Origin: Chlorobiota bacterium
GTDB taxonomy: Bacteria; Bacteroidota; Ignavibacteria; OLB7
DNA: 64,000 nucleotides
Reading direction: 5' to 3'
Assembly (NCBI GenBank): GCA_963711465.1
Contig: CAVQEG010000001.1
Span: forward strand, 2,014,332-2,078,331
The notes under the pieces are model-generated. The model was not told the DNA's origin. It saw only the letters and a list, made by a program, of their open reading frames with translations, and made no database searches. The translations under genes were made by a program, and so were the position numbers. Below, in pieces: positions 1,131 to 4,100 of this stretch. Within the stretch, counting starts at the first letter, position 1, and every line of letters starts with the position of its first letter.

Positions 1131-4100
1131 TTATGGATACGCGATTGGATTACCTTGGGGATCAATCGTTGACGGTCCATCAGGGTGCAAATTCCCTTGG
1201 GGGTCCCTTCTCAGCGCATAACTGATGCGTAATGGCAAACCCACCTCGCGCCGAAGGAGGTTTTCCACATACGTGGCACGCCATTCGTCCTTTGGAAGTC
1301 CACGAAAATCAGCGCTGTACCCCGGATTACCGGCGAAACCCTGAAGCGATTGGTGCGGATAGTAGACTCCGTCATTGATGTCGCGTGCATGTCCTCCAAG
1401 CTCGTGCCAGAGAGACACGTACGGATCTGTCAGCTGGATCCCGGCGGTTGTCGCGATTGCGCTCCTTCGACCGGGTGCAAAGTAGATTGTCGCTCCCGCC
1501 CCATTGCTTCCGGTAAGCCCGGGCTGAGCGGCACGCATTTCACGATTGTTTGCGTAACTGTCCCGCAAGGTTGCATGCTGAACGTCGCATCGATTCCCAA
1601 TTCCGCCGTTTACGGCGGCGGGTCCAAAATCTTCCACAACATTAAGGACGTTGACCGACTGCTCTAACCGATTCATTACCGGCGATCCCACTTGGGTTGC
1701 TCGAATCTTATTTAGGTCGGTTACAACGCTTTGAAGAAAGGAGTCGGACGTAGGATCAACGGGCCTTCCTGAATCATCAGACGTCCTTCCGTTGCTATAG
1801 ATTACGCGGTGCGTCGTTTGAAACAATCCGAGAAATCCACCGGTTTTGTAGGTGATGGTGACAGTGTCACCATTCGGATCGGCGTGGATCACGGGACCGT
1901 TTCGAAAGACGCGATATGAACTTGCATCGTATTCCGGTCGTGGATCAGTGTTCCACCGTTGCATCGTGCGCGCGTCGTACTCCCAGTGCATTGCGTAAAG
2001 ATGGCTCTCGGTCAGTTCAGTTGTGCGCTCCTGTCCATTAAACCCATACCGCCACTCCCCGCCCTCGTAGTGCCGCCCCGGCTGCAGCATGCCGTAGGCG
2101 TAGTAGTTCGCGTAGCTGCTCACCACCGCCACGAACGGATACGTCCCTGACTGCGCCGTCGGTTCCTTCATGTCCGTCACCACCACCCGCACGTTGCCCA
2201 GGTGATCCTTCAGCTCGTAGTACTTCTCCGAGAGCACCCGCACGCGGTACTCGTTCGTCGTGTCGATCGCCGTGCCTTCGCCTGCCGGACGGGCGAGATC
2301 CGTCGGCTTCGTCTCGGCGATGCGTCCCTGCGCGCCGTTGCCGTAGATCACCCACTCGGCGAGGTGGAACGCTTCGGTGCAGTTCGGCTCGCACGGGTTC
2401 GGATCGGTGCCGTCGGGGATGCCGTCGGAGTCCTGATCACCAGCCGGGCCCGCGGTGCAAGGACACGGATCGACCGCATCGGGGACGCCGTCGCCATCGA
2501 TGTCGCCGCCCGGTGCCGGGATCGACGGGTTCATCGGGTCCGGATCACACTGGTCCGGGATGCCGTCGTTGTCCGTGTCGACACCCTCGTGCGGGCTCGG
2601 CTCCGGATCGACGCAGTTCTCGTAGATCGCCACCACTTTGCCCCCTGCCTCGTAGACGTAGTACGTCGAGCGCACCTGCGTCGTGTCCGCCGGATCGATC
2701 ACGCTCTTGCGCACGCGGTTGCCCGCAGCGTCGTAGGTGAACCGAAGCACCGTCACGTTGTTCTTCGCCACCGACAGAACCTTGCCGTAGATGCTCCACT
2801 CGATGTTCGTGATGTTCTCCGAGACGTCGCCGATCATGTTTCCGATCGCATCGTACGTGTAGTTGCTCGTGTCGCTCTGGTTGTCGATGTCATCGCTGTA
2901 CTTCGTCGGGCTGACGAGGTCGGTCACCTGCCGCAGCTGGTTGGTGCCGCCATAGTACGCATACGTCAGTTGATCCATCGCGCCGGCACCCGTCGTGTCA
3001 CCACCCCGGCTCAGCGTCTGGATGTTCCCGTTCGGATCGTACGTGTAGGAGCTCGAGTACTCGTTCAGCGCGCCCGTCCACGTCCCCCCGCTGCCGTAGG
3101 TGTGATAGTTCGCCGCCAGCAGCCGGTTCAGCACGTCGTACCGGTAGGTGTAGCCCACCAGCTGCTCATCGATCGGAGCGCCCGTGCCCGACGCCTGCAT
3201 GTTCGTCGTCCACGTCGCGATGTTCCCGTTGTATAGGTCGTACTCCGGCATCAGGTGATACGACGACGCCGGCACCGACGACCCCGAGGCGAACCGCGAG
3301 GTCCCGTGCACAAAGTCCCCGTCGTAGTACCCCAGCATCATCCCGAACGCATCGGGTGCAAACCACCGCCGCGTGCCGAACCCATCGGAGCCCGGATCGA
3401 CGTTCGCGCCCGCGCCCGTGTCCAGCGACGGATGATTGATCGCCTTGAGCCAGCCCTGCAGCGTGTACGTGTAGTCGATCCCCTGCACGCTGTCCTCGCC
3501 GTACTCCACCCGGCGCAGCGGGCCGTGGGCGTAGTAGGTGTACCGCGCGTCGCTCTCGTAGATCTCACCGTCGCGTGAGCTCTCGACCTCGCGCAGACGG
3601 TTGTCCTCGTCGTAGCGATAGCGCTGGATGTACTGGTCCTCCCACCCCTCGTCGTAGAGCATCCGCAACATGTTCCCGCTGATCAGGTCGTACTCGTAGC
3701 GCACGTAGTTCGTGCCCAGATCCGGTACCTCCTGCCGAACCCACTCCACGTTCCCGTGCGGGTCGTAGCTGTACTGCGTGTGCACGCCCTCGTCGGTGTA
3801 GACATGCGCGATTCGGTTCTGCGTGTAGCGCTGCGGCGTCCAGTCGACGTAGCGACCGTTGTGCGTCAGTCCCGTCACCGTGCTGTCCGCCGGCGTCGTG
3901 TAGAACGTCAACACCCGGTGCTGTCCGTTCGTCGGGCGACTCTGGTCATCCACCGCGACCGCCACGTCGCCCGGCAGCGTCGAGTCGCCCACTTCCACCA
4001 CCCGGCTCAGGTGGTCGTACTTCGTGTAGGACATCTCCCCGGCGTCGAGCTGCGTCTGGTTCTGGCTGAAGCGCATCCGTCCCACCGCGTCGTAGTAGTA

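Follow-up and report, generated by a model that had tools for sequence, protein, structure and literature searches.

A predicted M91 zinc-peptidase tip with a six-residue HExxGH motif and its linked lipoprotein gene form a compositionally foreign cassette in an Rhs toxin of a Chlorobiota bacterium

We analyzed a 64,000-nucleotide stretch of the genome of a Chlorobiota bacterium (GenBank assembly GCA_963711465.1, contig CAVQEG010000001.1, positions 2,014,332 to 2,078,331 of the forward strand), which is referred to as the window. Near its start lies the gene of Rhs1, a polymorphic toxin, and an earlier note made from the sequence alone had proposed that the C-terminal tip of Rhs1 is a zincin-like metallopeptidase. 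The tip belongs, by its sequence matches and predicted fold, to the M91 family of zinc peptidases, and its zinc motif, HELGGH, is one residue longer than the usual HExxH. It is probably a zinc-endopeptidase toxin that acts in the periplasm and is paired with a cognate lipoprotein immunity protein. The tip and its partner gene probably entered the rhs1 locus as a cassette. The features of this locus are listed below (ORF, open reading frame; aa, amino acids; nt, nucleotides; BoNT, botulinum neurotoxin).

1131-8579, minus strand: Rhs1 gene, a Sec-exported polymorphic toxin with YD/Rhs repeats, from the ORF list and its translation
2034-2051, minus strand: cassette junction, codons RYGFNG, the last stretch common to the paralogous Rhs copies
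1881-2040, minus strand: cassette-specific end of the Rhs-associated core, about 57 aa, up to DPNGD
1866-1880, minus strand: DPNGD motif, the presumed autoproteolysis site
1134-1880, minus strand: toxin domain, 249 aa counted from DPNGD, M91 / NleD / Tox-HopH1 zincin family with a predicted BoNT-light-chain-like fold
1389-1406, minus strand: HELGGH motif (H2628, E2629, H2633), six codons CAC GAG CTT GGA GGA CAT
1392-1397, minus strand: tandem Gly codons GGA GGA, an exact repeat read from the sequence
1218-1286, minus strand: second active-site block with E2668, E2675-N2676 ([DE]N), R2679 and R2687-x-x-Y2690 (RxxY), on invariant or nearly invariant columns
596-1120, minus strand: putative cognate immunity gene for a 174-aa lipoprotein, starting 10 nt past the Rhs1 stop codon
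1073-1120, minus strand: signal peptide and lipobox at the N-terminus of the immunity protein, MRFTSLLLVLWSISG followed by the lipobox Cys

The tip matches Pfam Peptidase_M91 (PF14891) with 35.2 bits (cut-off 25, E 2e-8) over profile positions 10-176 of 176. A HMMER search of 1.84 billion representatives recovered 170 relatives at E <= 1e-3, the best of them at E 1.9e-24 with about 35% identity. These homologues mostly start with the DPxGD core end, and hence are Rhs-type tips too. Two alignments were used, a profile alignment of 27 homologous sequences (A1) and a family alignment of 151 sequences including the tip. The search with the A1 profile recovered 27 proteins, 26 of which, all the annotated ones, carry PF14891; the named matches are the NCBI 'M91 family zinc metallopeptidase' in metagenome-assembled genomes of Bacteroidales. 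PADLOC and NCBIfam searches of the tip gave no match, and the sole match of a single-sequence phmmer search against the PDB was a meaningless cytochrome. Judged by these comparisons, the tip is a divergent new M91 member with about 35% identity to anything on record. Metzincin, aspzincin and Tox-MPTase1-5 were also considered for the tip and were ruled out, as none had a Pfam match at E <= 1.

AlphaFold2 without an alignment produced an unusable model of the tip, with a predicted local distance difference test (pLDDT) score of 33. With alignment A1, the model has a pLDDT of 91.2 and a predicted template-modelling score of 0.89. Helix 153-170 spans HELGGH, and helix 197-212 carries E199, E206, N207, and R210 (tip numbering). 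When this model was searched against the PDB with Foldseek, the best 50 matches were all BoNT-type light chains (probability 0.96-1.00, E ~1e-4, query-normalised template-modelling (TM) score 0.34-0.42, identity 10-16%). The sequence profile of the tip family, searched against PDB sequences, matched best the light chains of BoNT/F (E 2.5e-4), eBoNT/J, PG1, and BoNT/E, and the alignments extend from the N-terminal helix via the GSGGT strand to LAHELxHA. The light chains of BoNT and tetanus toxin (MEROPS M27) are the closest solved structures to the tip, at a TM-score of about 0.4 and an identity of 12-15%. They have RxxY and the candidate third-ligand Glu in common with the tip, and HExxH, which in the tip has altered spacing. 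They are about 430 aa long and have large substrate-binding insertions, whereas the tip lacks these insertions and is not an M27 member. The structure prediction that the earlier note had suggested as a check thus led to a zincin fold, and its preference for a metallopeptidase-type toxin over a nuclease or deaminase is borne out by Pfam, the 170 homologues, the profile-to-PDB search, and Foldseek. A motif arisen by chance in a tip of some other function would fit the absence of a literal HExxH and the word-indexed single-sequence search, which found no relatives of the tip. This explanation is refuted by the Pfam match above threshold, by the HMMER relatives, and by the BoNT light chain fold match at a probability of ~1.0, and we give it practically no credence.

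The conserved residues of the tip, all on invariant or nearly invariant columns of the 151-sequence alignment, correspond to positions of the ORF as follows.

tip H159: ORF H2628
tip E160: ORF E2629
tip H164: ORF H2633
tip D167: ORF D2636
tip G171: ORF G2640
tip E199: ORF E2668
tip A202: ORF A2671
tip E206-N207: ORF E2675-N2676
tip R210: ORF R2679
tip R218: ORF R2687
tip Y221: ORF Y2690

The His, Glu, and His of HELGGH align with family columns that hold H (147/148 sequences), E (146/148), and H (150/150). Conservation is also high at E2675-N2676 (E 149/150, N 150/150) and at the ends of R2687-I-S-Y2690 (R 146/150, Y 146/150). E2668 is located 35 residues past the second His and is a candidate third zinc ligand; in BoNT/A, the third-ligand Glu lies about 35 residues past the second His (H227 to E262). 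The published signature of Tox-HopH1 is HExxH plus [DE]N (Zhang et al. 2012, PMC3482391), and HExxH, the third-ligand Glu, a second Glu, and RxxY are common to M91 and the botulinum light chains (Mansfield et al. 2019, PMC6367388; PMC9846239). As aligned, the tip residues match this M91 signature, with the HExxH residues at altered spacing and with [DE]N, the third Glu, and RxxY in place. The rest of the tip, in which the earlier note had recognized no motif, hence contains the E...EN and RxxY motifs of the family.

We also inspected the boundaries of the tip. Up to RYGFNG, the DNA of Rhs1 is about 95% identical to that of the orphan copies and of Rhs2, the second full-length Rhs of the window. 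Upstream of RYGFNG, 26-30 of 30 bases are identical, and about 30 nt beyond it the identity is 5-10 of 30, which is the random level. The G+C fraction at third codon positions (GC3) is 0.90 in the core (2041-8600), 0.585 in 1881-2039, 0.526 in the toxin tip, 0.557 in the downstream gene, and 0.87 in the orphan fragment at 1-567. As the GC3 drop and the identity break coincide at 2040, this position is the recombination junction of a foreign cassette rather than the place where the Rhs core stops. The core appears to continue for about 57 aa past the junction to DPNGD, and therefore the toxin proper has about 245 aa. DPNGD is aligned to the DPxGD of homologues, in which D is conserved in 116/120 and G in 118/120 sequences. 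The earlier note had taken the tip to be some 300 aa long, counted from where the core stops; of this description, the divergence point of the paralogues at 2040 stands and the position of the core end does not. The cassette, about 596-2040 on the minus strand, is compositionally foreign, its sharp GC3 break marking the import of a tip-immunity unit into a high-GC genome.

The body that received the cassette is that of a divergent Rhs, an identification based on divergent matches. YD_repeat_2x (TIGR01643) reaches 18.5 bits and so exceeds its cut-off of 15.8, and RHS_repeat (PF05593) scores 21.5 and 16.6 bits, slightly below its cut-off of 22. The YD motifs YTYDPNGN and FTYDAAGNR are seen in the translation. 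The Rhs-associated core model TIGR03696 (Rhs_assc_core) matches partially, with 15.4 bits in Rhs1 and 31.1 bits in Rhs2 (cut-off 32.5). The Pfam search found neither a PAAR nor a VgrG domain in Rhs1, and no genes of a type VI secretion system (T6SS) were found among the window ORFs scanned, a scan that was not exhaustive. The mechanical ORF of Rhs1 is 1131-9287 on the minus strand (2718 codons), and its 3' end carries the toxin tip. Its first 236-245 codons are an Arg/Trp-rich spurious read-through (8580-9287) overlapping an upstream 1319-aa ORF, and translation probably begins at the ATG at 8579 (MNLSIL) or at 8552 (MLVPRTG). From either candidate start, the N-terminus (...HRFVPLLLTLLSPLLVQAQ / ...FVPLLLTLLSPLLVQAQ) is a Sec-type signal peptide. 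The upstream 1319-aa ORF (8657-12616, minus strand) has an AgmC_N-like domain, whose 166 bits fall short of the equivalog cut-off of 275. The shell of Rhs1 also has an inserted Asp-rich block at about 2400-2560 on the minus strand, which recurs in Rhs2 and the orphans. It resembles the calcium-binding repeats of thrombospondin type 3 (DTDNDGIPDxCDPDP...DIDGDGVPD...DQDSDGIPDGTDPNPC), and its match to Pfam TSP_3 is weak (17.7 bits, below cut-off).

The gene at 596-1120 follows the tip closely, with no promoter- or terminator-like site on that strand between it and the Rhs1 stop codon. Its product has no match in Pfam, NCBIfam, or PADLOC, and its single database twin is itself. To find M91-tip loci in species-representative genomes, we used a degenerate DNA pattern for EW.A.Y.EN..R.....PLR..Y. 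The pattern occurs at 64 loci, nearly all in Bacteroidota, and 57 of these have a gene directly downstream. Two main families emerge from these genes, one with 38 members and one with 15, and their products are exported proteins of about 140-200 aa. The window protein joins the family of 15, with phmmer matches at E 3e-21 to a gene of Deminuibacter soli and at E 1.6e-13 to a Pedobacter gene. Among the partner proteins of M91 tips, 57/58 have a signal-like hydrophobic N-terminus, which is directly followed by a lipoprotein-type Cys in at least 30. Against the tip, full-length toxin domains paired with the window's immunity family reach 76-98 bits, compared with 25-66 bits for the partners of the other family. 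Toxin and partner hence co-segregate, which is the behavior expected of a cognate immunity gene. The assignment of 596-1120 as the cognate immunity gene, already guessed at in the earlier note, is thus supported by the occurrence of its family directly after the closest M91 tips in Bacteroidota and by its export signal. Neither family is in Pfam, and Zhang et al. 2012 listed no immunity family for Tox-HopH1 (PMC3482391). Consistently linked to M91 tips in Bacteroidota, the two uncurated exported families are candidate immunity families for Tox-HopH1 / M91 toxins, a partner that earlier surveys left unlisted.

Immunity proteins are located where the toxin acts, and the partners of M91 tips carry export signals, which together point to action in the periplasm. 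[quoted passage not shown] The M91 tip of SED_RS06335 arrests E. coli growth only if it is sent to the periplasm (PMC13556075; PMC8867033), and it is neutralised by its membrane-anchored, periplasm-facing partner (PMC13556075); antibacterial and periplasmic action have been shown for that pair itself. By its published description, SED_RS06335 is a PAAR-Rhs with a canonical HEXXH, whereas Rhs1 has a Sec signal, no PAAR, and HELGGH. SED_RS06340 is a 110-aa protein with a single transmembrane segment, whereas the immunity lipoprotein of the window has 174 aa and comes from another family, which is uncurated. The C-terminal metallopeptidase of Pseudomonas aeruginosa VgrG2b, whose immunity protein is a lipoprotein, is likewise a zinc-peptidase toxin that is delivered by a T6SS and acts in the periplasm. 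It differs from the Rhs1 tip in being fused to a VgrG spike and not to an Rhs cage, and it is absent among the profile-to-PDB and Foldseek matches listed. VgrG2b has been described as carrying an M91 domain (PMC8867033).

The M91 family also includes NleD and HopH1 (MEROPS M91), type III effectors that share with the tip PF14891 and the HExxH ... [DE]N signature, of which the tip has HExxH at altered spacing. They are stand-alone proteins injected into eukaryotic cells and have no immunity gene. If the tip were such an anti-eukaryotic effector, it would cleave a host signalling protein, as the characterised M91 enzyme NleD does with JNK and p38 according to work cited in PMC6367388; another M91 protein, Pseudomonas Tpe2, was predicted to be anti-eukaryotic and to lack an immunity gene (PMC9846239). 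The Rhs1 tip, however, is closely linked to a family-conserved immunity gene that carries an export signal, and the locus is a classic polymorphic-toxin setting with orphan tip-immunity cassettes. The sole Rhs-M91 toxin tested so far is antibacterial (PMC13556075), and we consider an anti-eukaryotic role very improbable. The cassette is probably an ordinary bacterial-warfare toxin-immunity unit, in which the extra Gly of the zinc motif is the one oddity. Tox-HopH1 was already listed as a toxin tip on RHS proteins, including those of Bacteroidetes, by Zhang et al. 2012 (PMC3482391).

The zinc motif itself differs from what had been reported. Its position and frame were given correctly, on the minus strand inside the 1131-9287 ORF and within the context LWHELGGHARDINDGVYYPHQ as quoted, while its spacing was misread as HExxH. 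The six codons encode HELGGH, that is HExxxH (HExxGH), with one residue inserted relative to the family motif. The 2718-codon ORF has no other HExxH or HExxxH, and by chance 0.004 such motifs would be expected in the tip and 0.06 in the ORF as a whole. About 140 of 150 relatives have HExxH, and four have a six-residue motif (HELLGH twice, HELFGH, and HELIGH), in which Gly always precedes the second His as in the tip. In a neighbor-joining tree, these variants each adjoin HExxH sequences and not one another, which suggests that HExxGH arose more than once in the M91 family. For three of the four, the contig was inspected, and in each case the gene downstream has stayed intact and carries an export signal; two of these genes belong to the same family as the downstream gene of the window. 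Within M91 the motif often reads HELGH, and the tandem GGA GGA may reflect a codon duplication that turned HELGH into HELGGH. Dipeptidyl peptidase III (M49) has the same form, with Gly before the second His. It binds zinc via HEXXGH, where the helix widens so that each turn takes five residues, and M49 members with HEXXH are active as well (PMC3268031, PMC5805324). On these grounds, we think that the HELGGH site is probably functional. Membership of the tip in M49, a family marked by HEXXGH plus EEXRAE and a two-domain fold, was ruled out, since there is no Pfam M49 match and the predicted fold matches BoNT light chains. The likeness to M49 is restricted to the motif, with no relationship in sequence or fold, and therefore would represent a convergent solution.

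These data are consistent with the following mechanism. The cassette at 596-2040 (minus strand) would have been acquired horizontally and recombined at RYGFNG onto a conserved Rhs/YD-shell body. It is predicted to encode three parts, namely its own Rhs core end up to DPNGD, the 245-aa zinc endopeptidase domain, and the lipoprotein immunity protein. The tip would be released at DPNGD by the usual aspartyl autoproteolysis of Rhs proteins. H2628 and H2633 would bind the zinc, with E2668, or else D2636 or E2675, as the third ligand; E2629 would serve as the catalytic base, and R2687-x-x-Y2690 may stabilise the transition state. Most likely, a locally widened helix like that of dipeptidyl peptidase III (M49) would absorb the extra Gly and leave the enzyme active. 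After delivery to a neighboring Gram-negative cell, the domain would cleave an envelope protein or peptide in the periplasm, and the periplasm-facing lipoprotein would shield the producer and its kin.

Several points weigh against this mechanism. Canonical spacing in about 96% of the family means that the Gly insertion could impair zinc binding, and the GGA GGA repeat may stem from a recent slip confined to one genome. The neighbor-joining tree behind the recurrent origin of HExxGH is crude. The alignment given to AlphaFold2 is dominated by HExxH sequences, and hence the confident helix over HELGGH does not count as separate evidence that the site works. As to the third zinc ligand, in the Salmonella domain as modelled by AlphaFold3 an Asp located six residues past the second His sits on the zinc (PMC13556075). 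Furthermore, no secretion or delivery apparatus for Rhs1 was identified in the window. The main alternative is a dead or decaying toxin, a true M91 homologue in which the extra Gly misplaces the second zinc ligand, so that the tip is an inert loss-of-function allele or a pseudo-enzyme. In line with this, the six-residue motif occurs in just 5/151 family sequences including the tip and in none of about 50 genome loci with a readable motif, the tandem GGA GGA resembles simple slippage, and one copy of the exact cassette is on record. Against it, all other invariant catalytic residues are intact, the frame is open to the normal C-terminus of the family, and the immunity gene is intact. HExxGH with Gly before His also occurs in other lineages that keep immunity genes, and M49 peptidases bind zinc and work with HEXXGH. 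A dead toxin is unlikely, without being negligible.

The preferred reading, a periplasmic M91 toxin with its lipoprotein partner, has a bolder extension that we put forward tentatively, as something short of probable. HExxGH may be a working, repeatedly evolved alternative zinc site of M91 that converges on the M49 solution, and the cassette, with an exported immunity family not described before, may have crossed from low-GC Bacteroidota to a high-GC host. If this holds, the linked immunity families would help in tracing the periplasmic substrate of antibacterial M91 toxins. The recurrence of HExxGH in the family also makes it a natural test case for the spacing that a zincin site can accept. 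Rhs-M91 / Tox-HopH1 tips have been catalogued since 2012, and one has been shown to be antibacterial and periplasmic. What is mildly new here is the HExxGH in the M91 family, the two uncurated immunity families, and the clear compositional evidence of cassette import. The general understanding of Rhs toxins is unchanged, and the practical gain is a correct annotation: Rhs1 with an M91 zinc-peptidase toxin and 596-1120 as its immunity gene, the pair probably acting in the periplasm.

Other features of the window include further Rhs-related genes and a defense system.

1-567, minus strand: orphan Rhs core fragment directly downstream of the immunity gene, running off the window, with a translation near-identical to internal Rhs1/Rhs2
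25469-33028, minus strand: Rhs2, the second full-length Rhs, about 95% identical to Rhs1 up to RYGFNG, with an unrelated tip of about 250 aa
24437-25450, minus strand: 337-aa ORF after Rhs2, signal-like N-terminus, no Pfam match
22530-23837, minus strand: orphan Rhs cassette with a class-3 lipase-like alpha/beta hydrolase tip (26.9 bits to Pfam Lipase_3, whose cut-off is 22, and a GFSHGG motif)
19115-22180, minus strand: orphan Rhs core fragment with another tip, no significant Pfam match
23564-24280, minus strand: truncated orphan Rhs core piece
59650-61701, plus strand: GajA (PADLOC PDLC00063, 938 bits)
61694-63439, plus strand: GajB (PADLOC PDLC00113, 860 bits)

Two near-identical Rhs bodies with unrelated tips, together with the orphan fragments at 1-567, 19115-22180, 22530-23837, and 23564-24280, make up a polymorphic-toxin layout. 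The next orphan toxin cassette presumably begins with the fragment at 1-567, and the tip of Rhs2 has no Pfam match. The lipase-like cassette is followed by a 152-aa ORF (22008-22466, minus strand) with a hydrophobic N-terminus, a likely immunity gene. A 304-aa protein encoded at 45578-46492 (minus strand) has a weak match to Por_Secre_tail, a C-terminal sorting domain of the type IX secretion system (23.9 bits against a cut-off of 27). Taken with the Bacteroidota affinity of the cassette, it hints that the host is a high-GC member of the FCB group. GajA and GajB form a complete Gabija anti-phage system at 59650-63439 on the plus strand.

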